From: a virus
Length of the DNA stretch: 34,917 nucleotides
Strand: one strand, 5' to 3'
IMG/VR virus record: IMGVR_UViG_3300000227_000001
Location: 1-34,917 of that record
The translations under genes were made by a program, and so were the position numbers. This document shows positions 2,309-18,354 of the stretch, piece after piece (position 1 is the first letter of the stretch; every line of letters starts with the position of its first letter). Below the pieces are notes generated by a model. That model had not been told where the DNA came from. It saw only the letters and a program-made list of their open reading frames with translations, and ran no database searches.

Positions 2309-4387
2309 ATGGCCCGACCAACCAAAGAGCAACGACTTGCTGCCATCCACAAGGAGGCACTCGTCGAGTTCGACAACATCCAATCTGCCCTGCGCGATGA
2401 GCGACTGCAGTGCCTACAAGACCGCCGGTTTTACTCGGTCGCAGGTGCTCAGTGGGAAGGTCCATTGGGCGAGCAGTTCGAGAACAAGCCCAAGTTCGAG
2501 GTTAACAAGATTCACTTGGCTGTCATCCGCATCATCAACGAGTACCGCAACAACCGCATCACCGTCAACTTCGTGAGCAAGGAAGGCAAGGAGCACGACA
2601 AGCTGGCTGACATATGCGCCGGCCTGTACCGTGCCGACGAGCAGGACAGCGGCGCTGAAGAAGCTTATGACAACGCCTTTGAGGAAGGTGTGGCTGGCGG
2701 CTTTGGTGCGTGGCGTCTGCGCACAGTGTACGAGAACGAAGAGGACAAAGAGGACGAGAGGCAGCGTATCCGCATTGAGCCGATCTTTGATGCCGACTCG
2801 TCTGTATTCTTTGACCTGAACGCCAAGCGCCAAGACAAGGCTGACGCCAAGAGCTGCTTCGTCATCACGTCCATGACGCACCAAGCTTACAAGGATGAGT
2901 GGGGCGATGATCCAGCTTCGTGGCCGAAGGAAGTCCATCGGTATGAGTTCGATTGGCTGACGCCTGACGTCGTCTATGTGGCTGAGTACTACCGCGTCGA
3001 GGAGACCCGTGAGACCGTCTACGTCTGGGAGACCCTGAACGGCGATGAGGAACGCTACAATGACGCCGACTTCGAGGCTGATGAGACCTTGGAAGAGCGC
3101 CTGCTCGCTGTTGGCAGCCGTGAGGTTCGCCAGAAGACCATCAAGCGCCGCCGCGTCCGCAAGTACATCCTGTCAGGCGCCAAGATTCTCGAGGACTGCG
3201 GCTACATAGCCGGTAAGTGCATCCCCATCGTGCCCATGTACGGCAAGCGCTGGTTCGTTGACAACGTTGAGCGCTGCATGGGTCATGTCCGCTTGGCCAA
3301 GGATGCTCAGCGCTTGAAGAACATGCAGCTGTCGAAGCTCGGTGAAATCAGCGCCATGTCCTCGGTTGAGAAGCCCATCCTCACACCTGAACAAGTTGCC
3401 GGCCACCAAATAATGTGGGCTAATGACAACATCAAGAACTTTCCCTATCTGCTTGTCAATCCCATTACTGACGCCAATGGTAATCAAGCCATTTCTGGTC
3501 CGATCGGTTACACCAAACCGCCTCAGGTTCCACAGGCTTTGGCTGCTCTGCTGCAAATCACTGAGCAGGACATGAAGGACCTGCTTGGTAACCAGCAGGC
3601 CGGCGAAGAGCTCCAGCCCAATATCAGTGGCAAAGCAGTTGAGCTCGTGCAGAACAAGCTCGACATGCAAACCTTCATCTACATGAGCAACATGAGCAAG
3701 GCCATCAAACGCTCAGGTGAAATTTGGTTGAGCATGGCTAAGGATGTTCTGGTCGAAGAAGGCCGCAAGATGAAGTCCATCGGCCCACAAGGCGAGATTC
3801 AGTCAGTCGAACTGGCCAAGCCCATGATTAACGAGAAGGGCGAGATTGGGATTGAGAACGACTTGTCTGACGCCGAGTTCGACGTCAGTGTGGACGTCGG
3901 CCCTTCGTCTTCTAGTAAGCGTGCCGCCACGGTCCGTGCTCTAACCGGTATGGCTTCCCTGACCGATGACGCTGAGACCAAGCAGGTCCTTGGCGCCATG
4001 GCCATGATGAATATGGAAGGCGAAGGTATCACTGAGGTGCGCGACTACTTCCGCAAGAAGTTGCTCCGCATGGGAGTCGTCAAGCCCACTGAGGAAGAAC
4101 AGCGGGCCATGGCTGAGGAAGCTCAGAACGCCAAGCCCAATCCGAATGAGCAGTACTTGCAGGCAGCGGCCGATGAGGCCACGGCCAATGCCACTCAGGC
4201 TCGCGCCAAGACCATCCTCACGATTGCCCAGGCAGATGAAACCAAGGCCAAGACTATGAAGACACTGGCTGAAGTGAACTCGTCAGAGCAGCGCCAGGCC
4301 ATTGAGGTCATCGAAAAGTTAGGTGGATTGGGCCAGGTCCAACCTCAAGGGGCCGAAACTGTATCCCAGAACGGCACTTCACTGTAA
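2309..4387 (+). CDS. Portal protein, P22 gp1-like
   Basis: 692 aa. The block IKRRRVRKYILSGAKILEDCGYIAGKCIPIVPMYGKRWFVDNVERCMGHVRLAKDAQRLKNM closely resembles my recollection of P22 portal (IKRRRVYKSII...[35 protein letters not shown]). The C-terminus is helical and Ala/Gln-rich. Confidence 0.9.
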   Translation: MARPTKEQRLAAIHKEALVEFDNIQSALRDERLQCLQDRRFYSVAGAQWEGPLGEQFENKPKFEVNKIHLAVIRIINEYRNNRITVNFVSKEGKEHDKLADICAGLYRADEQDSGAEEAYDNAFEEGVAGGFGAWRLRTVYENEEDKEDERQRIRIEPIFDADSSVFFDLNAKRQDKADAKSCFVITSMTHQAYKDEWGDDPASWPKEVHRYEFDWLTPDVVYVAEYYRVEETRETVYVWETLNGDEERYNDADFEADETLEERLLAVGSREVRQKTIKRRRVRKYILSGAKILEDCGYIAGKCIPIVPMYGKRWFVDNVERCMGHVRLAKDAQRLKNMQLSKLGEISAMSSVEKPILTPEQVAGHQIMWANDNIKNFPYLLVNPITDANGNQAISGPIGYTKPPQVPQALAALLQITEQDMKDLLGNQQAGEELQPNISGKAVELVQNKLDMQTFIYMSNMSKAIKRSGEIWLSMAKDVLVEEGRKMKSIGPQGEIQSVELAKPMINEKGEIGIENDLSDAEFDVSVDVGPSSSSKRAATVRALTGMASLTDDAETKQVLGAMAMMNMEGEGITEVRDYFRKKLLRMGVVKPTEEEQRAMAEEAQNAKPNPNEQYLQAAADEATANATQARAKTILTIAQADETKAKTMKTLAEVNSSEQRQAIEVIEKLGGLGQVQPQGAETVSQNGTSL

Positions 4388-4434: not shown

Positions 4435-5349
4435 TTGAATGGGGTCATTGAAATGAACAAAAAGGCAGACGACCAAGCAGCGGCAGACGATGAAGTGGTA
4501 ACCTTGGAAGACGAAACCACGGTTGTGGACGGCGAGGGTGAAGACAGCAACACCGACGAAACCCAGTCCGATGACAACGAAGGTGAAGGCACCCAGGAAA
4601 CTGCCACTGAGTCCGATGATGTTGTGGTGACCATTGGTGAGGAAGCGCCACCCACTGAGGAAGAGACCCGAGCGCCCGAATGGGTACGTGAACTGCGCAG
4701 GATCAACCGCGAGGACAAGCGTCGCATCCGTGAACTGGAAGAGAAGCTCAACGCCATCAAGACTGCTGAGACCAAGCCGGCAGCCTTGGGTAAGAAGCCC
4801 GCTCTTGAAGATTACGATTATGACGCTGAGAGGTTCGAGCAAGCATTGACAGCTTGGTACGACCGGAAACGTGAAGCCGACCAAGCTGCTGCACAAGCTG
4901 AAGCTGCACAAAAGGAACAGCAGAAAGCTTGGCAGGCCAAACTGGATGCCTACAACGAGGCGAAAGCTAAACTGAAGGTCAGGGACTTCGACGACGCCGA
5001 GGCGACTGTCCAGGACATCTTCAACGGCACCCAGCAAGGCATCATGCTGCAAGGAGCTGAGAACCCTGCGTTGGTTATCTACGCGCTGGGCAAGAACCCA
5101 AAGAAGGCCAAGGAAATCTCGACCATCACTGACCCCGTGAAATTTGCTTTCGCGGTGGCTAAACTGGAGACTCAATTGAAAGTTACGCAACGCAAAGCAG
5201 CCACAGCACCTGAGCGCATTGTCCAGGGAACTGGCAACAAGTCTGGGACTGTGGACCCAACCCTCGAGCGGCTGCGTGCAGAGGCGGCAAAGTCTGGTGA
5301 CTTCACCAAAGTCATCCAGTACAAGAGGTCGAAGCAAGCGGCTAAGTAG
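4435..5349 (+). CDS. Scaffolding protein (start more likely ATG at 4453)
   Basis: Acidic N-terminus and a coiled-coil Ala/Lys/Glu-rich body, positioned between portal and coat. The ORF track start at 4435 is a TTG. An in-frame ATG lies at 4453. Confidence 0.7.
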   Translation: MNGVIEMNKKADDQAAADDEVVTLEDETTVVDGEGEDSNTDETQSDDNEGEGTQETATESDDVVVTIGEEAPPTEEETRAPEWVRELRRINREDKRRIRELEEKLNAIKTAETKPAALGKKPALEDYDYDAERFEQALTAWYDRKREADQAAAQAEAAQKEQQKAWQAKLDAYNEAKAKLKVRDFDDAEATVQDIFNGTQQGIMLQGAENPALVIYALGKNPKKAKEISTITDPVKFAFAVAKLETQLKVTQRKAATAPERIVQGTGNKSGTVDPTLERLRAEAAKSGDFTKVIQYKRSKQAAK

Positions 5350-5373: not shown

Positions 5374-6648
5374 ATGGCAAATGCATTTTCCAAAGAAGAA
5401 CGCATCGCGTTTGAAGACATCCTCGAAGGCTTCAATGACGCCTTGGTCCTGAGCCGCAACGTCGCGACCTACAACGTCGGCGGCACCGAGATGGAGCGCT
5501 CGCAAGACACCATCTGGCGTCCCCAGCCGTACATCGCTAACTCGATTGACGGTGCACCTGGTACTGACATCTCCGCCCAGTACAAGGACATGGTTCAGCT
5601 GTCTGTGCCCGCCACCCTGGGCTTCAGCAGGACTGTGCCTTGGACCCTGAACGCCAAGGAACTGCGCGACGCTCTGCAAGAAGGTCGTCTGGGCGACAGC
5701 GCCAAGCAGAAGCTGGCCAGCGACATCAACGTGGCAATCATGAACGTGGCATCCTCCCAAGGTACCTTGTTCGTGAAGCGCACCGCTGCGGCTTCTGGTT
5801 TCGACGACGTCGCCCAGTGCGAAGCAGTGTTCAACGAAATCGGTGTGCCTTCATACGATCGCTACCTCGCTCTGAGCACACGCGATTACAACGGCATGGC
5901 GGGCAACTTGGCTGGTCGTCAGAACGTGACTGACCTGCCGAAGGAAGCCTACCGCCGCGCCTACGTCGGCATGATCGCCTCGTTCGACACGTACAAACTG
6001 GACTACGCCAACCGCAAGGCGGCCGCTGCCGGCGGCTCAGGTCTGACCATCAGCACTCTGGACTCTGCTGGCAACTACTACATCCCCAAGGCCACGATCA
6101 CCTCCGCGGGCGGCAAGATCAACGTTGACAACCGTTACCAGACCGTGACTGTTTCGAGCACCGCTTCGGTGGCTGCTGGCGACGCCTTCACGATCGCTGG
6201 TGTGAACAGCGTGCACGCCATCACCAAGGGCGACACCGGCCAGCTGAAGACCTTCCGCGTCATCAGCGTGACCAGCGGCACCACGATGGTCATCAGCCCG
6301 CCAATCATCAGCAACCAGGTGCCTAACGACGCTTCGGCCCAGTACCAGAACTGCGTGGTGAATGCCAAGTCTTCGACCTCGGCCATCGTGTTCTTGAACA
6401 CCGCTGACGGCTACCAGAATCCGTTCTGGCAGAAGGACGCGCTGGAAATTCTGCCCGGCCGTTACGCCGTCCCGTCCGATGCTGGTACCGCAGTGATGCG
6501 TGCCACCACTGATCAGGGTATCGAACTGGTCATGCAGAAGTTTTATGACATCAACACAATGACGACCAAGTACCGCTTGGACACTCTCTTCGGTGTCGTG
6601 TGTAAGCAGCCTGAAATGGCCGGCATCATGATGTTCAGCCAACCCTAA
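5374..6648 (+). CDS. Major capsid (coat) protein, P22 gp5-like
   Basis: 424 aa with an aggag RBS. SQDTIWRPQPY and KINVDNRYQTVTVSSTASVAAGDAFTIAGV resemble P22 coat SSNTIWMPVEQ and [30 protein letters not shown], as recalled from memory. Confidence 0.9.
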   Translation: MANAFSKEERIAFEDILEGFNDALVLSRNVATYNVGGTEMERSQDTIWRPQPYIANSIDGAPGTDISAQYKDMVQLSVPATLGFSRTVPWTLNAKELRDALQEGRLGDSAKQKLASDINVAIMNVASSQGTLFVKRTAAASGFDDVAQCEAVFNEIGVPSYDRYLALSTRDYNGMAGNLAGRQNVTDLPKEAYRRAYVGMIASFDTYKLDYANRKAAAAGGSGLTISTLDSAGNYYIPKATITSAGGKINVDNRYQTVTVSSTASVAAGDAFTIAGVNSVHAITKGDTGQLKTFRVISVTSGTTMVISPPIISNQVPNDASAQYQNCVVNAKSSTSAIVFLNTADGYQNPFWQKDALEILPGRYAVPSDAGTAVMRATTDQGIELVMQKFYDINTMTTKYRLDTLFGVVCKQPEMAGIMMFSQP

Positions 6649-7046: not shown

Positions 7047-7529
7047 ATGGGCTGGACTAAGCGCCAATTCGTCACACAGGCCTTCGAAGAAGTCGGGTTG
7101 GCGGCTTACGTTTTCGACCTGACCCCTGCGCAGCTGCAAAGCGCCTTGAACCGGCTGGACTCCATGATGGCGTCGTGGAACGCTAAAGGAATCCGTCTCG
7201 GTTACCCCATCGCGTCAAACCCACAAAATAGCGACCTTGACGAAGAAACCAACGTACCTGACTCGGCCAATGAGGCCATCTACCTGAACCTCGGGATCCG
7301 CATCGCTCCTGGCTTCGGCAAGACTGTAGCCCCTGAGACCAAGGCCGCGGCCAAGATGGCCTACGATGTCTTGCTGTCTCGTGCCGCCGTGCCACCTGAG
7401 CAGCAGTTCCCAGGCACGATGCCTTCTGGCGCAGGCAACAAACCATGGCGGGTCTATAACGATCCGTTCTTTCATCGACCAGTTGATCCCCTGCTTGCAG
7501 GTGAAGACGGCCCAATCGAGTTCAACTAG
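7047..7529 (+). CDS. Head-to-tail adaptor / tail accessory factor, P22 gp4-like
   Basis: 160 aa with an aaggag RBS. GIRIAPGF and TMPSGAGN resemble P22 gp4 ACRIAPDY and RMPTGSGN (from memory). Size and position agree. Confidence 0.75.
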   Translation: MGWTKRQFVTQAFEEVGLAAYVFDLTPAQLQSALNRLDSMMASWNAKGIRLGYPIASNPQNSDLDEETNVPDSANEAIYLNLGIRIAPGFGKTVAPETKAAAKMAYDVLLSRAAVPPEQQFPGTMPSGAGNKPWRVYNDPFFHRPVDPLLAGEDGPIEFN

Positions 7530-7540
7530 GAGAACCTCAC

Positions 7541-7996
7541 ATGCCACAAATCAATCAGCTCGCTGCCGTCGATCAAGTCCAGTCTGGCGACCAAGTGCCA
7601 ATCTACTCGGCAGCCAACGGCGACGCGCGTAAGGCCGCGCTCTCGCTGCTCAAGACCTTCTTCCAAGAAGGTATCACTGCTTCCGACGACAAGATCACTC
7701 AGTTCGCCGCCCCTTCAGCAACTGGCTTCAGCATTCAGGTCAACAACAACTCGGACAGTGTCTGGCTGGTGCTTGCACCGACTGCTGACTTTGCCGCTGG
7801 CACTCTGGTGCTTCCTGCTGTGGCCAACTGCGTTGACCGTCAAGAAGTCTTGGTGAACTGCACCCAAGCCGTGACCGCTCTGACCGTATCTGGGAACGGT
7901 GCTACCGTAACTGGTGCACCAACCGCATTGGCAGCCAATGCATTCTTCACGCTCAAATTCGACGCCGTAACCTCGACGTGGTATCGCGTCGGCTGA
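7541..7996 (+). CDS. Hypothetical virion-module protein (151 aa)
   Basis: An aggag RBS precedes an uninterrupted ORF in the structural operon. Confidence 0.7.
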   Translation: MPQINQLAAVDQVQSGDQVPIYSAANGDARKAALSLLKTFFQEGITASDDKITQFAAPSATGFSIQVNNNSDSVWLVLAPTADFAAGTLVLPAVANCVDRQEVLVNCTQAVTALTVSGNGATVTGAPTALAANAFFTLKFDAVTSTWYRVG

Positions 7997-8010
7997 CTAA
8001 GGAGAACATT

Positions 8011-8472
8011 ATGTGTTTCAACTTTTCAAGTGGGGATAACTTTACCGAAGGTGTCACCTCGGTTGCTCCCATCTACAGCGTTTTTGACAACACGGCAAAC
8101 GGCAGTGACAAGTCTTTTACTGTTCCGGCTGGCGAAATGTGGAAGATCATGTATGCCAACGTCAAACTTGTAACGTCCGCAACAGCTGGCGCCCGTCAAT
8201 TGCGTCTCACTATGACCGATCCAAGCGGCAACGAAGTTGGTTATATCTCGGCAGGCGCGGTGCAGAATTCATCCTTGGTATACAACTATGGATTCTTTCA
8301 GGGCATTAATCGTGAAACGTCATTTATAGACAACATGATTCAAGTTCCAATCCCCATTGACCTGTATCTGCCCGCTGGTTCGACTATTCGATTCCACGAC
8401 TCGGCAGCCGTTGACCCTGCCGCTGACTACATGGTGGTATCTTTTGGTGCGCAGCTCTTCAAGGGATGCTGA
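8011..8472 (+). CDS. Hypothetical virion-module protein (153 aa)
   Basis: ATG at 8011 follows taaggagaacatt. The upstream extension in the ORF track overlaps the previous gene. Confidence 0.7.
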   Translation: MCFNFSSGDNFTEGVTSVAPIYSVFDNTANGSDKSFTVPAGEMWKIMYANVKLVTSATAGARQLRLTMTDPSGNEVGYISAGAVQNSSLVYNYGFFQGINRETSFIDNMIQVPIPIDLYLPAGSTIRFHDSAAVDPAADYMVVSFGAQLFKGC

Positions 8473-8475
8473 GAC

Positions 8476-9876
8476 ATGCAAATTCCTGTTCTAAACGGCA
8501 TCTATACTGACGGGGTGGCGGATTTCCGAACTTCCTACCCTGTCAACATGGTGCCGGTGCCAAAAGAGCAAGGGATTAGCAAAGGATACTTGCGCCCGGC
8601 AGATGGCTTGGTTGCCAATGGCACAGGCCCCGGTGTCAGCCGCGGCGGAATCAACTGGTCTGGTATCTGCTATCGTGTCATGGGCACAAAGCTGGTGACG
8701 GTAGCGGAGAACGGCACGATCACTGAATTGGGCGACGTGGGCGGATCAGGTCAAGTGACGTTCGATTACTCCTTCGACCGCCTCGGCATCGCATCAGGTG
8801 GCAACTTGTTTTACTGGGACGGGTCAACGCTAACGCGTGTGGCCGACGCCAACCTCGGCACAGTGCTCGACTTTTGCTGGGTGGATGGCTACTTCCTCAC
8901 CACAGACGGCACGTCACTTGTCGTTACAGAACTCAACAATCCGACCTCTGTTAATCCACTGAAGTACGGCAGTTCTGAAGTCGATCCAGACCCAATCAAG
9001 GCGGTGCTCAAGGTGCGCAATGAGGTCTACGCGTTGAACCGGCACACAATCGAGGTATTCGACAACGTAGGCGGAGAGTTTTTCCCATTCGCCAGAATTG
9101 AAAGTGCACAGATTCAGAAGGGCGTTATAGGTACACATGCCGCTTGCATCTTTATGGATGCAGTAGCTTTTCTTGGCGGCGGACGCAATGAATCCCCCGG
9201 CGTATATCTTGGCAGCAACGCAAACGCAATCAAGATCAGCACCCGCGAAATCGACACGATCTTGTCGGGCTATACTGAGGCACAACTAGCTCTGTCGGTG
9301 CTGGAGACGCGCAATGATAAAGCGCATCAACATCTGTGGGTGCGGTTGCCAGATCGGACGCTTGTCTATGACGCGGCGGCGTCTCAAGCGCTGGAAGAAC
9401 CGGTTTGGTTCCATCTGACGAGCGCGATTAATGGTTTCTCGGCGTACCGTGCAAAGGATTTGGTGTGGTGCTACGACAGATGGCTTATTGGAGATGCTGA
9501 GACCTCAAACGTCGGCTACCTGGACGACTCTATCGCCTCCCATTTTGGCGAGACTGTGCGATGGGAGTTTGGCTCGCTGATCATCTACAACGAGGGTCGC
9601 GGAGCCATCTTCCACGAGTTGGAACTTGTTTGTTTGACTGGTCGTGTAGAGTTTGGCAAAGACCCGCAGATTAGCACGTCATACTCGGTGGACGGCGAAA
9701 CTTGGAGCCAAGACAAGTTCGTAAAGGTTGGCAAGCAGGGTGACCGACTTAAGCGCATCGTGTGGTTACAGCAAGGTCATATGCGCAATTGGCGAATGCA
9801 GCGATTCAGAGGCGACAGCCGGGCGTTTATCTCGGTGGCGCGTCTTGAGGCGCATCTTGAAGCATTGGCGGTGTAA
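8476..9876 (+). CDS. Tail hub / packaged-DNA stabilisation protein, P22 gp10-like
   Basis: 466 aa (P22 gp10 is about 472 aa). YPVNMVP, GVSRGG and GDVGGSGQV resemble P22 gp10 YLPVNML, GVSRG and GDVAGSGRV (from memory). Confidence 0.75.
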   Translation: MQIPVLNGIYTDGVADFRTSYPVNMVPVPKEQGISKGYLRPADGLVANGTGPGVSRGGINWSGICYRVMGTKLVTVAENGTITELGDVGGSGQVTFDYSFDRLGIASGGNLFYWDGSTLTRVADANLGTVLDFCWVDGYFLTTDGTSLVVTELNNPTSVNPLKYGSSEVDPDPIKAVLKVRNEVYALNRHTIEVFDNVGGEFFPFARIESAQIQKGVIGTHAACIFMDAVAFLGGGRNESPGVYLGSNANAIKISTREIDTILSGYTEAQLALSVLETRNDKAHQHLWVRLPDRTLVYDAAASQALEEPVWFHLTSAINGFSAYRAKDLVWCYDRWLIGDAETSNVGYLDDSIASHFGETVRWEFGSLIIYNEGRGAIFHELELVCLTGRVEFGKDPQISTSYSVDGETWSQDKFVKVGKQGDRLKRIVWLQQGHMRNWRMQRFRGDSRAFISVARLEAHLEALAV

Positions 9877-9878
9877 CC

Positions 9879-10406
9879 ATGGCGCGCTTAAATCTCACTC
9901 GTGACCAATTGGCGGCCTTTCTGAAAGACCACCAGTCGATCAAGCAGTTTGAACGGCTTTTCCAGGTTGTGAATGATGTGCTGGCGTCCAGCGATGCGCA
10001 AATTGCAGAATCGGCAGCCGCCAAAGTTCAGGAGGCTTTAGACGCTCTTCACCGCATCGCCGATGCTTTGGAACTGCTCGCTTTGTCGCCAGCCGCCCCG
10101 GCGGTTTTGGGAGAAGACGTAATTGTCATGCCAGCAGTCGAATTGTTGCAAGCCGATAATCTCGCGCCGCCTGTTCAGGTTGGCACGCTTGGGCAACAAC
10201 AGGCGGAATGCGTCTCAATATCTGGCGGCACAGTATCTGCTAATCTCAAGAACAACCAAACAATTTTGCTTGAAACGACCACTACACTTTCAAACGGGGC
10301 GGCAGCCGCTGTCGGCACACTATCTAACGCCCCTGTAGATGGCGATCCTACAAAATGGGTTGCCATAAACGACAATGGCACAATTCGTTACATCCCAACC
10401 TGGTAA
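9879..10406 (+). CDS. Hypothetical protein; possible tail needle/plug by position (P22 gp26 slot)
   Basis: 175 aa with a coiled-coil-like N-terminal half, directly after the gp10-like gene. No sequence match was recognised. Confidence 0.6.
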   Translation: MARLNLTRDQLAAFLKDHQSIKQFERLFQVVNDVLASSDAQIAESAAAKVQEALDALHRIADALELLALSPAAPAVLGEDVIVMPAVELLQADNLAPPVQVGTLGQQQAECVSISGGTVSANLKNNQTILLETTTTLSNGAAAAVGTLSNAPVDGDPTKWVAINDNGTIRYIPTW

Positions 10407-10417
10407 GGAGATCCACC

Positions 10418-10753
10418 ATGACCGTCACCGTCAAGAACATCATCCCGCGCAAGCAAGCTGAGAACGTGCAGACGACACAATACACTGCGACAAACTGCAA
10501 AACAATCATCGATAAGTTCACTGTGACTAACACCACAGCAGGAGCCGTGACCTTCGCTTGCAACCTGGTGGCCTCAGGTGAAGCTGCCGGGGTGTCGAAC
10601 CTGGTGCTGAGCACTAGATCGATCGCCGCCGGCGAGACCTACACCTGCCCTGAGCTTGTGGGTCAGGTCCTTGAGCCAGGCGGGTTCATTTCTACGTTGG
10701 CTGGTGCTGCCACGTCGTTGACTATCAGCGCTTCAGGCCGCGAAATCACCTAA
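10418..10753 (+). CDS. Hypothetical protein (111 aa, Thr/Ala-rich, beta-rich)
   Basis: ATG at 10418 follows taaggagatccacc. A terminator-like hairpin follows the gene. Confidence 0.7.
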   Translation: MTVTVKNIIPRKQAENVQTTQYTATNCKTIIDKFTVTNTTAGAVTFACNLVASGEAAGVSNLVLSTRSIAAGETYTCPELVGQVLEPGGFISTLAGAATSLTISASGREIT

Positions 10754-10769
10754 AGTGGTTCGCTTTTTT
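10740..10769 (+). terminator. Candidate intrinsic terminator (interrupted stem followed by T6)
   Basis: gcgaa (10740-10744) pairs with ttcgc (10759-10763), with an inner cac/gtg pairing, followed by tttttt at 10764-10769. The stem is short and interrupted. Confidence 0.35.
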
Positions 10770-10853
10770 CTATAGATTCATGGCAGATACCATCTCAGCT
10801 GAGCCGAGACTCGAGCCGCCAGCAGCTCACAAGTCCCACCAAGGAGTGAAGTG

Positions 10854-11708
10854 ATGAGTGGCACCGCAATCAAAAAAGCAACAGCGTTGGAAGCCCTTGA
10901 AGGCTACATGCTCAACTTTCCACAGGTCGAATGCCCGGTTGTTCATCACTTCGGACCTGGCATCTACATCCGAGAAGTTACCCTGCCTGCTGGCACAATC
11001 GCCATTGGACACGCCCAGCGGTTTGAGCACCTTAACATCATGTTGACAGGCGCAGTCGCAATGGTTGGTGACGACGGGCAGACCAAGGTGCTGCGAGCAC
11101 CCATGATCTTCGTTGGCAAGCCTGGGCGCAAGCTCGGCTACGTGCTCGAGACCTGCGTCTGGCAGAACGTCTACGCTACCGAGGAGCGTGACATCGACAA
11201 GCTCGAATCGATGTTCCTCGACAAGAGTCCCACATGGCAAGCCCATGCTGAGGCAGCTAAGCAGCTTGAGTCTTACCGCCGTCGTGAAGACCGTGAAGAC
11301 TTCGAGCTGGTGGTCCGCCTTGCTGGCTTCACTCCAGACGTCGTGCGAGCTCAATCAGAAAACCCTCACGACCAGATACCCATGCCTGAAGGGTTTGGCG
11401 CCAAGTTGACTATTCGCCCATCGGCCATCGAGGGCCTTGGCGTGTTCCTCAGCTCGCCTGCTGAAGCTGGTGAGGTGCTTGGACCAGCTAGAGTCATGGG
11501 ACGCCGTACACCTGCTGGCCGATATACCAACCACTCAAAAACTCCCAATGCCAAGTTCACCAAGGACGAGAGCGGTACCATTTGGCTCGTGGCCACTCAG
11601 CGAATTGCTGGTTGTGTCGGCGGCGGCCAAGGAGAAGAGGTCACGGTTGACTATCGTCAAGCTCTCGCCCTCTCGGGCATCAATTTAATCGAAGGAGAAT
11701 CACAATGA
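10854..11708 (+). CDS. SET-domain protein (putative lysine methyltransferase) with a His-rich beta N-terminal domain
   Basis: The C-terminal 100 aa carry SET hallmarks: GLGVF, RYTNHSKTPN (NHSxxPN) and GEEVTVDY. An aaggag RBS lies 7 nt before the ATG at 10854. The ATGA stop overlaps the next gene. Confidence 0.8.
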   Translation: MSGTAIKKATALEALEGYMLNFPQVECPVVHHFGPGIYIREVTLPAGTIAIGHAQRFEHLNIMLTGAVAMVGDDGQTKVLRAPMIFVGKPGRKLGYVLETCVWQNVYATEERDIDKLESMFLDKSPTWQAHAEAAKQLESYRRREDREDFELVVRLAGFTPDVVRAQSENPHDQIPMPEGFGAKLTIRPSAIEGLGVFLSSPAEAGEVLGPARVMGRRTPAGRYTNHSKTPNAKFTKDESGTIWLVATQRIAGCVGGGQGEEVTVDYRQALALSGINLIEGESQ

Positions 11709-12349
11709 GCGGAATCGCAACGGCCGTCGTGGCCGGTTCAGTCATTACTGGCGTCATGGCTAGCAAAGCCCAGTCTGACGCAGCTGAACATGCCGCCGAC
11801 GCGCAGATTACCTCGAGTCGGTCATCGATCGAGGAGCAGCGGCGCCAGTTTGACGCGATCCAGAAACTTCTGGCTCCATACGTGAGCGCTGGTGTACAAG
11901 CAATTGGTGGTCAGCAAGAACTGCTCGGTCTTGCTGGGCCAGAAGCTCAGCGCCAGGCAATTGCCGGTATCGAATCATCGCCCCAGTTTGCTTCGATGAT
12001 GCAACAAGGTGAGAACGCCATCTTGCAGAATGCCTCAGCGACTGGTGGGCTGCGTGGCGGCAATGTCCAAGCCACCCTTGCTCAATTCCGACCACAATTG
12101 TTGAATCAATTGATCGAGTCCCAGTTCAGTAAACTCGGCACCATCTCAGGTCTCGGTCAGGCGTCGGCCGCTGGTCAAGCAGCTGCAGCTCAGCAGACTG
12201 GCGCCAACATCGGCAACGCGTTGACTCAACAAGGTCAGGCCGCGGCAGGTGCGGCATTGGCCCAAGGACAAGCGCAAGCCCAAATGTGGGGGAATATCGG
12301 CGGGACCATAGGCAATGTCGCCACGCTCAAAGCAATGAAGGTATTCTAA
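11705..12349 (+). CDS. Internal virion / ejection protein (P22 gp7-sized)
   Basis: 214 aa, Ala/Gly/Gln-rich with a hydrophobic N-terminus. Synteny and size match the first of the three P22 ejection proteins. Confidence 0.6.
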   Translation: MSGIATAVVAGSVITGVMASKAQSDAAEHAADAQITSSRSSIEEQRRQFDAIQKLLAPYVSAGVQAIGGQQELLGLAGPEAQRQAIAGIESSPQFASMMQQGENAILQNASATGGLRGGNVQATLAQFRPQLLNQLIESQFSKLGTISGLGQASAAGQAAAAQQTGANIGNALTQQGQAAAGAALAQGQAQAQMWGNIGGTIGNVATLKAMKVF

Positions 12350-12351
12350 CC

Positions 12352-13647
12352 ATGGCACAACCATTCAACTACATGCTCAACGTCCCTGACCCGACTCAGT
12401 CGGTCATGGACGGCATTCAAAATGCACTCAACATCGGCTACATGATGTCGCAGCGAAACCTGGCCGAGCAGAAAGCCCTCGACCTGCAGAAAGCTCGTGA
12501 GACACAGGCCCAGATGGAGATTGACCTTGGCGCTCTGTCCAAGAACCCGACACCGTCGGCTCTGGCCAGCATGATGGTCAAGTACCCCAGCCTGAGCGAG
12601 AGCTTCAAGCGCACCTATGACGTGCTGAGCACCGAGCAGAAGGATTCACGTCTGGGCCAAGCCACGCAGGTTTACGCCGCACTCCAATCCAACAAGCCTG
12701 AGATCGCCCAGCAGCTGCTGACTGACCAAGCTGCGGCCTACCGCAACTCAGGCCAAGAGCGTGAAGCCAAGACGCTTGAGGACCTGGGCATGCTGATCAA
12801 GATCAGCCCTGAGACGGCGAAGACCTCGGTCGGTCTCTTCCTTGCTTCGGCCATGGGTCCTGACAAGTTCGTCGAGACGTTCACCAAGCTCCAAGGTGAG
12901 CAGCGTGATGCTGAGCTCCACCCGTCGAAGCTGACTGAGTCACAAGCCAAGGCCCAGAAAGCGGCGATCAGCGCCAAGTTCGCCGAGGCCAACGCCGTGC
13001 TTGACCTGCAGAAAAAAGGTTGGGACATCACCAAGATACAAGAGGACATCAAGATCGCCAAACAGAATGCTTCAATCGCCGCTCTCAACGCCCAGATCGC
13101 TCGCGAGAGCAACCAGATTAAGCGCGAGGAATACCAACTTAAGTTGCAAGACATGATCCAGAAACGGGATGAGGCTGTACGCGCCAAGGCAGCTGACCTT
13201 GAGGCCGCCCGCGCGAGCATGGACAATATGCTCAACACGGCTGACCGCATCCTGAAGACGCCGATTGGCGTGGTTGATTCAGCTGCCGGCCCAGTGTCGT
13301 CGCGCATGCCCACACTCAGACAGGACACGGCTGACTTCGAGGCTCTGGTTGAGATGCTTGGCTCACAGTCGTTCATGGCCCAGATCCCCATCATCAAGGG
13401 CATGGGCGCACTGTCTAACGCTGAAGGCGAGAAGCTCCAAGCTGCTCTGCAGAACTTCAGCTTGAAGCAGTCTCCTGAGCGTTTGCTCGAGAACGTCAGA
13501 GAGGCCCAGCGTTTGATTATAAAGGCACGCAAAAACTTGACCGCGCGGTCAGGCATGCCTGAGACCATCCCTGACACGCCTGCCGTGAGCACTTCTGGTG
13601 CCGACATCGATGCGCTTGTCAAGAAGTATACCCAAGGAGCCCACTAA
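12352..13647 (+). CDS. Internal virion / ejection protein (P22 gp20-sized), coiled-coil rich
   Basis: 431 aa. ATG at 12352 comes right after the previous stop. The track start at 12286 lies inside the previous gene. Confidence 0.6.
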   Translation: MAQPFNYMLNVPDPTQSVMDGIQNALNIGYMMSQRNLAEQKALDLQKARETQAQMEIDLGALSKNPTPSALASMMVKYPSLSESFKRTYDVLSTEQKDSRLGQATQVYAALQSNKPEIAQQLLTDQAAAYRNSGQEREAKTLEDLGMLIKISPETAKTSVGLFLASAMGPDKFVETFTKLQGEQRDAELHPSKLTESQAKAQKAAISAKFAEANAVLDLQKKGWDITKIQEDIKIAKQNASIAALNAQIARESNQIKREEYQLKLQDMIQKRDEAVRAKAADLEAARASMDNMLNTADRILKTPIGVVDSAAGPVSSRMPTLRQDTADFEALVEMLGSQSFMAQIPIIKGMGALSNAEGEKLQAALQNFSLKQSPERLLENVREAQRLIIKARKNLTARSGMPETIPDTPAVSTSGADIDALVKKYTQGAH

Positions 13648-15545
13648 TGGCAACACTCCAAGAACTTGAGCTGGCCTTGGTCAACGCCGACAAGGCGGGT
13701 GACCTTGATGCCGCTCGACGCTTGGCTGCCGTGCTTGTCAAGGCTCGCCAAGATCCCAAAAACCAGATACCAGACATGATTGTGCCTGGCACGACCCAAG
13801 AGTACGTTGAGCCATCCCTTGGTGAGAAGATTGTCGGCGCTGGTGAAGCTGCCCTGACAATTGGCACTGGTGCCACTGGCGGAACAATTGGCATGATCGC
13901 CGGCGCGTTGAAAGGTCTGGCCGAGCAGATATTGTCTGGCCAGTTCGGCAGCCGAGAAGCGGCCAGCCTAGTTGAGAAGTCAGCCATGCAAGGAGCTCAG
14001 GCACTGACCTACACGCCCCGCACGCAGTCAGGTCAGGAGCAAGTACAAGCCGTCGGCGAAGTGCTCCAGAACGTCCCTCCTGTCATCCCAGTTGTTGGAC
14101 CTATCGGAGCCGTCTCTACTAGTGCCAAGATGGCGCAGCCAGCGGTGGCGGCAACTGCCGGTCGTGTCGCAGCTCCTGTTGTGGCTGCCACCAAGCGAGC
14201 CGGTCAGGTCGCGGCCAAAGTTACTGAGCCGATTCGTGAGATGATGCCTGGCGCAACTTCCAAGAGCCCAACCCCTGGCACCCAGGCATCTGGCGGTTCA
14301 GCTGGTGTGGACATGGCTACTCTGCGCCAAGCTAAGGCCAATGAGTTGCCAGTGCCCATCAAGCTGACTGAAGGCCAGAAGACTCGTCAGTTCGAGCAGC
14401 AGCGCTTTGAGCGCGAGACCGCCAAGCTACCTGAGGTTGGGGCGCCCATCCGCGAGCGCTTTGCCATCCAGAATAAGCAGCTTCAGCAGAACCTCGAGGC
14501 CTTCATTGACATGACTGGAGCTGAGGCTCCTGACCTGCGCTCCATAGGCCTGGCCGTGGACAAGGCGCTGCGTGACCGGGCAGCCCGTGACAAGACGCGC
14601 ATCCGCACCTTGTACAAAGAGGCTGAGAAGGCCGGCGAGATGGAAGCCCCTGTCAAACTCGACGCCGTGGTTCAGCATCTGGTTGACAACGCGCCTGAAG
14701 CTGAGGTGGCCAATGTGCTCAAGGCAGCTCGAGCTAAAGCTCTGCAGCTTGGTGTAGCCATTGAGGCGCCTGATGGCACATTGATTGCCCGACCTGTCTC
14801 GTTGAAGACGGCTGAGTTGTTCCGTCGCTCGATTAGCGGTGCCACCAACGCTGAGCCGACCAACATCATGCAAGCTTCTCAGATGCGCAGCCTCATCGAC
14901 GCATCGACCGAAGGTCTGGGCGGCAACTTGTACAAGCAGGCTCGTGCAGCACGTGCTCGGTTTGCCAACGACTACGAGAACATCGGTCTGGTGAAGAACC
15001 TGCTTGGCCAGAAGCGCGGCTCTAATGATAGAGCCATAGCCATGGAAGACGTGCTTCGCCGCGCAGTCATCGACCCATCGACGTCGCTTGATACGGTCCG
15101 CCAAGTTCGCCGGCTGCTTCAGACCGAGGGGCAGAATGGCCGGCAAGCTTGGAAGGAACTGCAAGGCGGTACGCTCAAGTTCATACGTGACGAGGCCACC
15201 AAGGGCGTGGGCCGTGATGAGCTTGGCAATGCCGTCTTGTCGCCAGCGCAGCTCGACCGCGTTATCACCCAGCTCGACAAATCTGGCAAGCTCGACTTTG
15301 TGTTCGGCAAGAAAGGCGCTGAACAGCTACGCACCATCAACGACGTGGCCAAGGACGTGCTTACTACTCCGGCTGGCGCGGTCAATACAAGCAACACGGC
15401 CAGCGTGCTTGCAGGCATGATGGACATCGCCATCAGTGGCACGGCGGGTGTGCCTGCACCAATCATGACAAGCTTTCGATTGGCAACAAAAAGCATCAAA
15501 GATGCGAAAACTCGCGCCCGCGTCAAGCGGGCTCTCGGTGAATAA
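13647..15545 (+). CDS. Internal virion / ejection protein (P22 gp16-sized)
   Basis: 632 aa with an aaggag RBS and a TAATG overlap with the upstream gene. It is placed immediately before the tailspike. Confidence 0.6.
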   Translation: MATLQELELALVNADKAGDLDAARRLAAVLVKARQDPKNQIPDMIVPGTTQEYVEPSLGEKIVGAGEAALTIGTGATGGTIGMIAGALKGLAEQILSGQFGSREAASLVEKSAMQGAQALTYTPRTQSGQEQVQAVGEVLQNVPPVIPVVGPIGAVSTSAKMAQPAVAATAGRVAAPVVAATKRAGQVAAKVTEPIREMMPGATSKSPTPGTQASGGSAGVDMATLRQAKANELPVPIKLTEGQKTRQFEQQRFERETAKLPEVGAPIRERFAIQNKQLQQNLEAFIDMTGAEAPDLRSIGLAVDKALRDRAARDKTRIRTLYKEAEKAGEMEAPVKLDAVVQHLVDNAPEAEVANVLKAARAKALQLGVAIEAPDGTLIARPVSLKTAELFRRSISGATNAEPTNIMQASQMRSLIDASTEGLGGNLYKQARAARARFANDYENIGLVKNLLGQKRGSNDRAIAMEDVLRRAVIDPSTSLDTVRQVRRLLQTEGQNGRQAWKELQGGTLKFIRDEATKGVGRDELGNAVLSPAQLDRVITQLDKSGKLDFVFGKKGAEQLRTINDVAKDVLTTPAGAVNTSNTASVLAGMMDIAISGTAGVPAPIMTSFRLATKSIKDAKTRARVKRALGE

Positions 15546-15556
15546 AAGGAGTCCAT

Positions 15557-17578
15557 ATGTTTCAAGTTCAGTCGCCATTTCAGCAGTTTTTTGGTCTTGA
15601 GGGAGGTCCTCTTGACGACGGCAATATCTACATTGGCGCTGCCGGCCAGAACCCTGAGACCAACCCCATCGCCGTCTTCTGGGATGAGGCTGGTACACTG
15701 CCTGCAGCACAACCTCTTCGTACGTCAAATGGCTACATTGTGCGCAACGGAACTCCGGCTAGAGTGTTTACAGCTGTAATGGATTTTTCCATTATCGTCG
15801 CCGACAAAAACAAGCGTGTAGTGTTCTATGCGCCATCAGTTCCTCCCCTGTTCTCTGATTTATCAAATACTAGTAACCAAACTCTTGGCGACGCCCTGGT
15901 TGGAGTCAAGTCACTATTGCCTGGTGGCGTTGCCAGAACGCAGCATGAGAAAAATGCTGATGTTGTCAGTGTGTGTGATTTTGGTGTTAAGGGCGATGGT
16001 TCTGATGAGACTGCATATCTGCAAGCGGCGCTGAATTCTGGACACAAGTGGTTATCTTTGTCAGGTAAAACTATCACGGCCGGGACTGTCACATTACCAT
16101 CTGGCGTAGGTCTTGTTGGAGATGGTGGGACTTTGAAAGCCAAATCTGGGTCATATTATCAAATTTACATCCCAGACGGTTCGGCAAACAGCACCATCCA
16201 CGGCATAACATTTGATGCTTCAGGACTCGTAACAGAAGGTTCTCCAATGGGTGAAGCTGCCTGCATATCTTCTGCGACCACATCTGGGACGATGTCTGGG
16301 TTGAGTATCACAAACAACCGATTCTTGAACATCCCTACAAACCTTGGGCAACGCATGCACTCGATACAGTTAAATTACGGTGAGGCTTACGTCAGTGGGA
16401 ACTATACCGAACAATGCGGTGGTGACATTTACAACTTCAACAACGGCTACTTTATTGTAACTGGCAACACGGCAAAAAATAGCGGTGATGGTGGCATCGC
16501 ATTTAATAACGATGCGCGCGGCTGCATCGTTGGCAACTACATTTATAAATGCGATCTTGGGGTAGGTGCAGGGCCGGAAGGTACAGACGCTAATCAGGAT
16601 CACACGTTACTAATCTCCAGTAATGAAATTGTTGCTTGCGGCGACGGCATCAACATGGGATGGTTTGCATATAAAGGAAGAAAAGGGCCCCGGAACGTTA
16701 AGATAGTTAGCAACACTGTGGCTAAGTGTAAACGCTCTGGGATACGATATGATGGCAGCGATGATGGCTGGACGGGCTATGTCACGATCGTTGGTAACAC
16801 AATCTATAACTGTGGCAGTACAGATCATGACGGGTCGGTTGGCGATGGGATTGGCATCTCAATTGGTGGATGCAAATATGTGATTATCGGCAGCAACACT
16901 CTCCACGATAACGCTGGCACAGACATCGTAGTTGGTGCCATTGAGAATGTTCAGGTCATCGGCAACGCCGTGAACGCCGGTACTTATGCTGAAGCTGGCG
17001 GAAGCTGGGCTGACTTTGCTAGCAGCTACGGTCTTATTGCCAACAACACGGCCTTTGGACGCCGCATACTTATTCGGAACTCAACAGGAGTGCGGGTAAC
17101 AGGAAACACTCTGACTCTTGGCTTGCAAGCTGCCGATCAGGGGGCTGTTGTGGTTGGCGCAACATCCACGGAAGTTACGATCAGTGAAAATAATTTCGTA
17201 TCCTGTGGCAATGCCATCTATTTGCAGAACCTGGTCGGCTGGTTTGCCAATGACGTTCTGGATAGTAACAAGTTCTTCAACTGCATGAATAAGGTCGTAA
17301 ACTCACCACTAACACGGCACGGAGACGTGTATGTCGAATGCGAATATGGTGGGGTTGTTGATGCATCGGGCAATTTTGATATTTCACATGGCACAGCGAA
17401 TGGGGGCGGCTACGTGATGGCTGCTGCCGCGTTTTACAAAGGTAACAGCGGCGAATCGTTGCCCATGACTTTGGCTTACATAGATGGTAGCATAGCGCGA
17501 TTCACTACAGATGCTGGTAACAAGGACAGAATCTGCCGCGCGTGGCTGCGCTACAATAAAGATGCAATTACCTGGTAA
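15557..17578 (+). CDS. Tailspike with P22-like head-binding N-terminus and right-handed beta-helix body
   Basis: The N-terminus DDGNIYIGAAGQNPETNPIAVFWDEAGTLPAAQPLRTSNGYIVRNG parallels P22 tailspike [39 protein letters not shown]. The body has repeated GN/NN-containing beta-helix-like rungs (pectate-lyase type). Confidence 0.85.
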   Translation: MFQVQSPFQQFFGLEGGPLDDGNIYIGAAGQNPETNPIAVFWDEAGTLPAAQPLRTSNGYIVRNGTPARVFTAVMDFSIIVADKNKRVVFYAPSVPPLFSDLSNTSNQTLGDALVGVKSLLPGGVARTQHEKNADVVSVCDFGVKGDGSDETAYLQAALNSGHKWLSLSGKTITAGTVTLPSGVGLVGDGGTLKAKSGSYYQIYIPDGSANSTIHGITFDASGLVTEGSPMGEAACISSATTSGTMSGLSITNNRFLNIPTNLGQRMHSIQLNYGEAYVSGNYTEQCGGDIYNFNNGYFIVTGNTAKNSGDGGIAFNNDARGCIVGNYIYKCDLGVGAGPEGTDANQDHTLLISSNEIVACGDGINMGWFAYKGRKGPRNVKIVSNTVAKCKRSGIRYDGSDDGWTGYVTIVGNTIYNCGSTDHDGSVGDGIGISIGGCKYVIIGSNTLHDNAGTDIVVGAIENVQVIGNAVNAGTYAEAGGSWADFASSYGLIANNTAFGRRILIRNSTGVRVTGNTLTLGLQAADQGAVVVGATSTEVTISENNFVSCGNAIYLQNLVGWFANDVLDSNKFFNCMNKVVNSPLTRHGDVYVECEYGGVVDASGNFDISHGTANGGGYVMAAAAFYKGNSGESLPMTLAYIDGSIARFTTDAGNKDRICRAWLRYNKDAITW

Positions 17579-17601
17579 GAATCGATAACAAGGAGCTAAT
17601 A

Positions 17602-17823
17602 ATGTGGACTCACTACTGTAATTCCGAAAAGTGCTTGCTTGACGTTGAAGACGGCGAGGAATGCAACTGGTGCGGAGTAACTCAAGAACTAACGCGTGAT
17701 AAAGAAGGGGAGACTGGGAATGGACCAAACACTTATAAATTGGCTGCTAGGTGGCCTCGGAACTCTCATCGGGTTCTTGCTCAGTGCAGTTTGGCAATCT
17801 GTCAAGGACCTGCAGGTTACTGA
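17602..17823 (+). CDS. Possible small zinc-ribbon protein (CNSEKC...CNWC); extent uncertain
   Basis: A good RBS (aaggag) precedes the ATG and the first 25 aa hold four Cys. The 3' 104 nt overlap the next gene in another frame. Confidence 0.35.
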   Translation: MWTHYCNSEKCLLDVEDGEECNWCGVTQELTRDKEGETGNGPNTYKLAARWPRNSHRVLAQCSLAICQGPAGY

Positions 17824-17974
17824 CAAGGAGCTCACGAAGAAGGTCTCTGAGATTGAGATCTTGGTGGCTGGCGACTACGTCAAGAAGGATGAATTTATGT
17901 CCCATATGACCACACTGTTTGCCAAGCTCGACAAAATTGAAGACAAGATTGACAAGAAGGCGGACAAAAGATGA
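17720..17974 (+). CDS. Small membrane protein of the lysis cassette (N-terminal TM plus charged helical tail)
   Basis: 84 aa. The TM segment is LINWLLGGLGTLIGFLLSAVW. A ggggag RBS precedes it and its ATGA stop overlaps the endolysin start. Confidence 0.7.
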   Translation: MDQTLINWLLGGLGTLIGFLLSAVWQSVKDLQVTDKELTKKVSEIEILVAGDYVKKDEFMSHMTTLFAKLDKIEDKIDKKADKR

Positions 17975-18354
17975 TCTACACCCTCAGCAAAAAGTCGCGA
18001 GACCGCCTTGCTGGGGTTCACCCGGACCTCGTCAAGGTTGTTGAACGCGCCATTGAGATCACTGAGATTGACTTTGTCGTGCTCGAAGGAGTTCGCTCCA
18101 AGACTCGCCAAGAGCAACTCGTCAAGGCGGGCGCCAGTCAGACCATGCGATCGCGCCACCTGACTGGTCATGCCGTCGATCTCGGTGCTTACGTGGCCGG
18201 CTCAGTTCGCTGGGACTGGCCTCTTTACCACAAGCTTGCTGTTGCCGTCAAGCAGGCCGCCGCTGAGTTACAGATACCAGTCGAGTGGGGAGGCGATTGG
18301 GCGACGTTCAAAGACGGACCACATTGGCAATTACCTTGGAAGGAGTACCCATAA
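17971..18354 (+). CDS. Endolysin, peptidase M15 (VanY / L-alanyl-D-glutamate peptidase-like)
   Basis: Zn-ligand pattern SRHLTGHAVD ... WGGDW ... DGPHWQ is typical of M15 phage endolysins. Confidence 0.85.
   Translation: MIYTLSKKSRDRLAGVHPDLVKVVERAIEITEIDFVVLEGVRSKTRQEQLVKAGASQTMRSRHLTGHAVDLGAYVAGSVRWDWPLYHKLAVAVKQAAAELQIPVEWGGDWATFKDGPHWQLPWKEYP

Follow-up and report, generated by a model that had tools for sequence, protein, structure and literature searches.

SET methyltransferases associated with prokaryotes, such as Go1-SET of Methanosarcina and the effectors of Chlamydia and Legionella, have chromatin-like proteins or proteins of a host as their targets; they are cellular proteins or secreted effectors, and are not known from phage virion modules or as fusions to cupins. 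Among viruses, PBCV-1 encodes vSET (A612L; PDB 1n3j and 3kma), whose activity as an H3K27 methyltransferase is established and which carries this name as its molecule name in the PDB. It is a minimal SET domain without a Cys-rich post-SET region, produced as a standalone protein of 119 amino acids (aa) by a eukaryotic algal virus, and it acts on histones. In phage genomes, SET domains have already been flagged by automatic annotation, and the fold and its chemistry are known. Small cupins occur as standalone proteins in podophages (ORF13 of RSK1, gp43 of phiAp1, gp38 of X14 and Bbp23 of BPP-1), where, except in BPP-1, they are encoded just before the genes for ejection or internal virion proteins. 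Here we describe a gene joining both domains (cupin-SET), located at positions 10854..11708 (+) of the IMG/VR virus record IMGVR_UViG_3300000227_000001, the whole of which (34,917 nucleotides [nt]) is called the window below. The best explanation of the data is that cupin-SET is a late two-domain enzyme of the ejection-protein operon in a P22-like podophage. The literature searched held no characterized phage SET enzyme, no virion proteomics for the cupin family and no study of any of its members.

The gene encodes 284 aa from the ATG at 10854, as shown by the list of open reading frames (ORFs), a match to PHROG 34170 and the AlphaFold2 model; a GTG at 10851 is an alternative start. A Shine-Dalgarno sequence, AAGGAG (10841..10846, +), was read 7 nt before the ATG. 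At its end, a stop/start overlap (ATGA, 11705..11708, +) couples cupin-SET to the gene for a P22 gp7-like ejection protein. This coupling had been claimed in a preliminary description made from the letters of the window, and it was borne out well beyond the window, position and coupling being conserved in 63 related loci where the gp7-like gene came next, with a 4-nt overlap in 29, a 13-nt overlap in 23 and a 2-nt gap in 4. The GC content around the gene (0.556) was like that of neighboring genes, and a promoter and terminator scan from 9800 to 12400 found no motif separating cupin-SET from them. All motifs quoted in the preliminary description were located in the translation, namely HHFGPGIYIRE (aa 31–41) and GHAQRFEH (aa 52–59) in the His-rich N-terminal part, and GLGVF (aa 194–198; nt 11433–11447), RYTNHSKTPN (aa 223–232; nt 11520–11549) and GEEVTVDY (aa 260–267; nt 11631–11654) in the C-terminal part.

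A minimal SET domain occupies about aa 184–272 (11403..11669, +), with GxG at 194–196, NHS at 226–228, PN at 231–232 and an EEVTVDY stretch that places Y267 at the catalytic position. Profile searches, on which the preliminary description had made its SET assignment depend, did support a SET domain. The protein scored 24.4 bits against the Pfam SET model PF00856 (cutoff 22.4; E 3.9e-5), the match covering profile positions 62–104 only, i.e., the C-terminal half of the model, and 100 of 108 divergent relatives matched this model individually, with a best E of 9.9e-9. When a profile of the 108 divergent members was compared with the PDB, it matched the SET domains of MLL1 (E 2.9e-10), vSET (1n3j; E 1.8e-6) and EZH2 (E 3e-6). 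Both halves of the domain aligned to MLL1, the first as SpIeGkGlF over SPIHGRGLF and the second as RyvNHSkePNa...GeEitvDY over RFINHSCEPNC...GEELTYDY. A search of the PDB with the single sequence returned sub-threshold matches only (PRDM16, E 0.28), and no NCBIfam model matched the protein. Structure comparison with Foldseek, starting from a model with a predicted local distance difference test (pLDDT) score of 90, matched the C-terminus to vSET (3kma; E 1.7e-4, target template modeling [TM] score 0.66) and to MLL1 (6u9m).

Conservation was examined in an alignment of 132 representatives of 50%-identity clusters. C-terminal positions conserved in at least 90% of them were S190, I192, G194, G196, T219, N226, H227, P231, N232, G253, G260, E262 and Y267. 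Within this set, the residues for binding of S-adenosylmethionine (SAM) and for catalysis were each 94–98% conserved: G194 and G196 in 130 representatives each, N226 in 127, H227 in 129, P231 in 124, N232 in 125, E262 in 130 and Y267 in 129. The mean column identity in a related alignment of 108 sequences (A2) was 36%. In motifs of the RFINHSCxPN type, SAM binding and formation of the pseudoknot both fall to the NH pair. Because the near-invariant residues are the SAM-binding and catalytic ones, the enzyme is likely to be active; the pattern points to purifying selection on SET catalysis rather than on the scaffold. Judged from these sequences, the domain is likely a SAM-dependent protein methyltransferase, most likely specific for lysine.

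Comparison with the two best-matching systems showed both the kinship of this domain and its reduction. The phage motifs are presumably near-identical to those of vSET, which we take to read FNHSKDPNA and GEEITISY, against TNHSKTPNA and GEEVTVDY in the phage. However, the phage domain is shorter than vSET, with SET-I nearly absent, is fused to a cupin, lies in a virion/ejection operon and belongs to a virus of a host without histones. The SET domain of MLL1/KMT2A (PDB 5f5e and 6u9m) was the best sequence-profile match, with the GxG and the NHSxxPN...GEExTxDY halves aligned, but it differs in having a SET-I of about 40 aa, a post-SET zinc cluster and an activity that depends on partners, and its context and architecture are unrelated. 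In the window protein, only about 7 aa separate the third strand from RTPAGRYTNHS, and no Cys cluster or post-SET follows Y267. In most characterized enzymes, SET-I and post-SET complete the lysine channel, although not universally, vSET having no post-SET. The near loss of SET-I and the absence of a post-SET would fit a SET fold that has been kept as a non-catalytic structural or protein-binding module, e.g., as a chaperone surface for ejection proteins. We regard this as very improbable, since the residues conserved at 94–98% (GxG, NH, Y267, E262) are those of SAM binding and catalysis, which a pure scaffold would not need, and since vSET is also minimal and yet a characterized methyltransferase.

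The AlphaFold2 model, built from an alignment of 51 sequences, had a pLDDT of 89.9 and a predicted TM score of 0.85. It was composed of a beta-barrel (aa ∼29–108), four helices (aa 114–168) and a small beta-rich C-terminal domain (aa 185–272). Together with Foldseek, it gave a cupin-like N-terminus and a SET-like C-terminus, the two domains for which the preliminary description had proposed structure prediction. That description had read the N-terminal 180 aa as one possibly cupin-like domain; the cupin part of the reading stood, but the region comprises a barrel of about 95 aa and a helical linker of about 55 aa. The small cupin barrel spans about aa 20–112 (10911..11189, +), as defined by Foldseek and by matches to PHROG 12032 and 24280, and the linker corresponds to 11193..11357 (+), as assigned by DSSP on the model. 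The part of the linker from D146 onward (D146-x2-D149-F150) accompanies the SET module in relatives with a permuted domain order, described below.

All of the top 30 PDB matches of the N-terminus in Foldseek were single-domain cupins (E 4e-5 to 1.5e-4, target TM score 0.52–0.68), led by the RmlC-like cupins TM1459 (8awp), 3fjs, ectoine synthase (5bxx) and KdgF (5fq0), at E of about 4e-5. Among the predicted viral structures of BFVD, matches were found to standalone phage cupins of 140–180 aa, some of them named 'Cupin', and to a 'SET domain containing protein [uncultured Caudovirales phage]'. The barrel was not recovered by sequence in the same way: Pfam Cupin models did not match the window protein, Cupin_2 was found in 4 of 108 relatives, and a cupin profile compared with PDB cupins by sequence gave only E values of 0.18–1.6. 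Cupins typically carry their metal ligands in motif 1, G(X)5HXH(X)3,4E(X)6G, and a fourth ligand in motif 2, G(X)5PXG(X)2H(X)3N. A variant of motif 1, G47-x5-H53-x-Q55-x3-H59-x6-G66, was read at 10992..11051 (+); in TM1459, an Mn-cupin, its counterpart in the alignment is the stretch HSHPWEH. Among the 132 representatives of the fusion family, H53 was present in 99, H59 in 99 and G66 in all, while position 55 was Q in 69 and H in 63. Motif 2 was not recognizable, the region reading GKPGRKLGY with an invariant K93 and no His.

Conserved residues of the cupin were Q24, H31, Y38, R40, G52, G66, K93, W103 and N105. In the standalone relatives the motif-1 histidines are not conserved, and only Q24, Y38, R40, G52, G66, G91 and K93 are common to all eight proteins aligned. 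Conserved residues alternate along the strands, a pattern that suggests a location on the inner face of the barrel; a conserved polar pocket is therefore likely, and a universal metal center is not.

The family is large, and abundant in metagenomes and in viral contigs of IMG/VR. A first search recovered 1343 homologues of the cupin-SET protein, and an exhaustive one 4000 relatives at E ≤ 1e-3, with 294 clusters (50% identity) at E ≤ 1e-30; the relatives were nearly all full length and of 265–300 aa. PHROG 34170, a family of unknown function, matched over the full length (E 3.6e-91, residues 8–280 against profile positions 16–291 of 296). In 80 IMG/VR loci the gene order was conserved, running from the head-closure gene Hc3 through a variable gene at the needle position, a small gene called p112, cupin-SET, the gp7-like and gp20-like ejection genes and the gene in the slot of P22 gp16 to the tailspike. 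Among 50,697 GenBank phage records, the cupin was found in 73 and the SET part in 8 only, representing six distinct phage sequences: Rhodoferax phage P26218 (gp30), MW202557, MW202655, MW202744, zth2-2 and Pseudoalteromonas phage PH1. One GenBank record had been auto-annotated as 'pbcV-1 histone H3-lys 27 methyltransferase structure', and the genome paper of P26218 does not mention the cupin-SET gene. The operon position and the coupling to the gp7-like gene were the same in P26218, MW202744 and PH1, and in prophage-like loci of Paraburkholderia. A genome scan added three loci in bacterial genome assemblies (L171–L173, from Burkholderia sp. BCC1977, Paraburkholderia sp. CNPSo 3274 and HD33-4), with cupin-SET genes of 38–39% identity; two of these loci have a Hc3-like gene before cupin-SET and one has a gp7-like gene after it, and they are probably prophages. 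Burkholderiales are thus among the few identified hosts, through the Rhodoferax phage and the Burkholderia and Paraburkholderia genomes. A metagenomic relative of 545 aa (P0126) has an additional glycosyltransferase-like region of about 280 aa before the cupin-SET part, which may be a real triple fusion or an artefact of gene calling.

The standalone cupins of RSK1, phiAp1, X14 and BPP-1 are homologous to the cupin domain of the fusion (24–44% identity), but have no SET module. RSK1, a P22-like Ralstonia phage, and Shewanella phage X14 encode their cupins in the same slot. In phiAp1, a T7-like Ralstonia phage, the cupin gene is flanked by those for tail tubular protein B and the internal virion proteins and so fills the position of T7 gene 13. 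BPP-1, a Bordetella phage, differs in that its distant homologue, Bbp23, is located away from the ejection genes and adjoins Bbp24, a GNAT N-acetyltransferase (both at L007:6501-7420), so that another type of protein-modifying enzyme is paired with a cupin there; a literature search on Bbp23 found nothing relevant.

Several of these cupins bear the label 'short tail fiber', for which no evidence is given. The N-terminal 135 residues of the window protein match PHROG 12032 and 24280, which go by the names 'short tail fiber' and 'tail fiber adhesin'; these names, which also appear in several GenBank records, could be taken to mean a receptor-binding role. We find this barely credible and rejected it: the label traces back to the unvalidated annotation of phiAP1 ORF43 (PMC8703784), the proteins are globular cupins of 133–230 aa, the gene lies with the ejection genes, three of which separate it from the tailspike, and the window has a separate tailspike gene, whose product carries a P22 head-binding domain.

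The distribution of the two domains emerged from a scan based on an alignment of the cupin alone. It yielded 80 loci, one of which was already in the first set (L057), leaving 79 new ones (L092–L170), 60 with standalone cupins and 18 with SET. The standalone cupins measured 133–277 aa when counted from the first in-frame start codon, and the longest of them are probably over-extended at the start. In seven loci (L101–L106 and L162) the order of the domains was reversed, with the linker helix and SET first and the cupin after (e.g., L101:3578-4426), and these permuted genes, too, were directly upstream of the gp7-like 'DNA ejection' gene. By BLASTP, aa 146–281 of the window protein matched aa 11–137 of L101 (43% identity, E 5e-31), and aa 15–117 matched aa 148–250 (39% identity, E 7e-24). 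This swap of both parts identifies the mobile unit as the D-x2-DF helix plus SET, of about 135 aa. The permuted cupins were of RSK1 type or of marine type. On a neighbor-joining tree of the cupin domains, whose resolution is limited at about 115 aa, SET carriers stood in at least four places: a large clade of the window type, two cupin-SET proteins beside RSK1, a SET-cupin group in the RSK1-type clade and one SET-cupin among the marine cupins. The module can also be missing in a close relative of the window phage. The locus L168, whose kinship is evident from Hc3 (E 1e-196) and the gp7-like protein (E 2e-64), encodes a cupin of 145 aa without SET (L168:3965-4402) and keeps an ATGA-type overlap with the gp7-like gene. 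SET was never seen as a separate ORF in the 79 new loci.

These results show the cupin to be the conserved core of a protein family of podophages, both P22-like and T7-like, encoded directly upstream of ejection or internal-virion genes, and SET to be an accessory attached to the cupin in both orders and sometimes lost. They also show that selection keeps SET physically tethered to the cupin. That the cupin might serve as a generic carrier of cargo was considered and rejected, as no fused domain other than SET was found in 157 loci and the long N-termini of some cupin-only ORFs look like over-extended starts.

The preliminary description had placed the gene where P22 has gp14. As to position this is correct: P22 gp14 (head morphogenesis, PHROG 651) and T7 gp13 are each encoded behind the tail or needle genes and immediately ahead of the three genes for ejection or internal core proteins. 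No homology was detected: hhalign gave a probability of 0.2 with gp14, which belongs to a different PHROG, and 0.18 with the internal virion protein A of T7, gp13, a weak test with a single-sequence target. Both are therefore positional analogues only, and neither carries an enzyme domain.

Our tentative preference for the role of cupin-SET, over co-packaging and injection, is that it methylates ejection proteins or other virion proteins of the phage in the producing cell, during assembly. The cupin would tether the SET methyltransferase to the assembly pathway of the ejection proteins or the procapsid, and SET would modify ejection or virion proteins before or during their incorporation into the procapsid; methylation could then tune the stability, protease resistance or interactions of virion proteins for the next infection. 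Methylation of Lys and Arg in phage structural proteins has been reported to persist in free virions, in phages without a methyltransferase of their own (PMC13288928).

Several observations weigh against this role. The literature searched contained no virion proteome, methyl-lysine map or enzyme assay of any family member. Lys columns were compared in the gp7-like, gp20-like, Hc3, p112 and p151 proteins between SET-bearing phages and L168. No Lys of the gp7-like protein was conserved across SET-bearing phages, and the conserved Lys of the gp20-like protein and p112 were few and also retained in L168, so that no substrate site was indicated. Since L168 keeps both the cupin and the coupling without SET, methylation is not essential for assembly. 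An enzyme acting only on its neighbors during assembly would not obviously need the fusion, and the lysine channel may be incomplete without SET-I and post-SET, unless the linker or the cupin completes it.

The silence of the neighboring proteins as substrates would suit an unpackaged enzyme that methylates host proteins late in the producing cell, its position in the operon reflecting co-regulation only. With its catalytic motifs intact, such an enzyme might sustain translation or block late-acting defenses. We consider this improbable, as it leaves unexplained both the fusion, in either order, to a cupin of the ejection module and the tight coupling to the gp7-like gene.

These two features are better accommodated by a packaged effector, in which the cupin, as a minor internal protein of the virion, carries SET and is ejected with it, so that host proteins, for instance of the nucleoid, translation or defense, are methylated at the start of the next infection. 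T4 Alt and N4 vRNAP, which are pre-made enzymes injected by their phages, would serve as the model. The gene is late, lies inside the ejection genes and is translationally coupled to them; SET never occurs free but is invariably joined to one end or the other of the cupin, as a cargo on a carrier would have to be; its sporadic presence and loss are typical of accessory functions in host interaction; and in phiAp1 the cupin gene stands in the place of T7 gene 13, whose annotation is that of an internal virion protein. In another phage system, host protein methylation was found to be up at T0 of infection (PMC13288928). On the other side, P22 gp14 is not known to be a virion component, neither it nor T7 gp13 has detectable homology to the cupin, and SET being the only cargo in the 157 loci, a general carrier role is not indicated. 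The searched literature places no member of the cupin family in virions. On balance, ejection of a SET-bearing internal protein is possible if rather doubtful, and the more specific proposal, in which the cupin carrier and SET share the capsid with the ejection proteins and are injected before the DNA, to methylate host proteins, is unlikely. If true, it would be the first phage-injected protein methyltransferase and would explain the time-zero burst of host methylation in some phage infections. Methylation of virion proteins in the producing cell remains our first, tentative choice.

The rest of the window is that of a podophage with a P22-type morphogenesis module. In the GenBank search at the DNA level, the best match covered 14% of the query at 75% identity. 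The module comprises genes for a large terminase (974-2299), a P22-like portal (2309-4387), scaffold (4435-5349), coat (5374-6648), a gp4-like adaptor (7047-7529) and the P22 gp10-like head-closure protein Hc3 (8476..9876, +; Pfam Phage_stabilise E 3e-39, PHROG 578 E 1e-101). Hc3 is followed by the needle-position gene of 175 aa (9879..10406, +), assigned by its position and by the lengths of its homologues, with no family match. These homologues (L010–L089) share sequence similarity and range in length from about 100 to 900 aa, which suggests a swappable distal, perhaps receptor-binding, part.

The preliminary description was right in placing cupin-SET in a P22-like virion/ejection module but not directly after the needle-position gene, as p112, a conserved, beta-rich gene of 111 aa (10418..10753, +), intervenes. 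It precedes cupin-SET in 64 related loci, is sometimes duplicated and is 33% identical to RSK1 ORF12 (E 1e-8); no family match was found. Two lysines of p112 are invariant (K13 and K34 in the numbering used). Its ORF (10418-10753) and that at 7978-8472 are both small and beta-rich, lie in the tail region and have a similar low-complexity composition rich in T, S, A and G.

Downstream of cupin-SET are the P22 gp7-like ejection gene (11705..12349, +; Pfam P22_gp7 E 1e-12, PHROG 598 'DNA ejection' E 3.3e-39), the gp20-like ejection gene (12352..13647, +; PHROG 2534 'released from the phage upon host infection' E 3.8e-32) and a third gene at the ejection position, in the slot of P22 gp16 (13647..15545, +), which had no family match, was assigned by position only and is kept in related loci. 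A tailspike with a P22 head-binding domain and a beta-helix (15557-17578) comes next, followed by endolysin and holin genes. The tailspike region (16001-18000) has a clearly lower GC content (0.48) than the remainder of the window (0.53–0.61), as would fit horizontal exchange of the part that binds the receptor.

The minus-strand half of the window is devoted to replication, with PolA, an SNF2 helicase, a primase/helicase, nucleases, a thymidylate-synthase homologue and a class I methyltransferase. The last two, at 19354-20301 (-) and 21447-22259 (-), lie about 1.1 kb apart and may form a DNA base-modification pair; the thymidylate-synthase homologue scored far under equivalog cutoffs, and the region of the class I SAM methyltransferase is 78% identical in DNA to a methyltransferase gene of Pseudoxanthomonas phage PW916.

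What is new here is the conserved cupin-SET architecture with its permuted form, and its fixed position within the ejection operon throughout a very large family. It was only in 2026 that phage structural proteins were reported to carry methylation that persists in free virions, and, as the methylated phages had no methyltransferase of their own, no phage-encoded enzyme is known for that modification (PMC13288928). With an intact-looking SET domain hard-wired to the ejection operon, cupin-SET is a candidate for a phage-encoded enzyme of protein methylation. Because there are cultured carriers (Rhodoferax phage P26218 and Pseudoalteromonas phage PH1) and natural relatives without SET, its role is directly testable: L168 offers a natural comparator for the deletion of SET, and L171–L173 add cultured systems. 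The repeated fusion in both orders is a Rosetta-stone signal, which provides a first handle on the function of a widespread and probably misnamed cupin, the so-called 'short tail fiber'.

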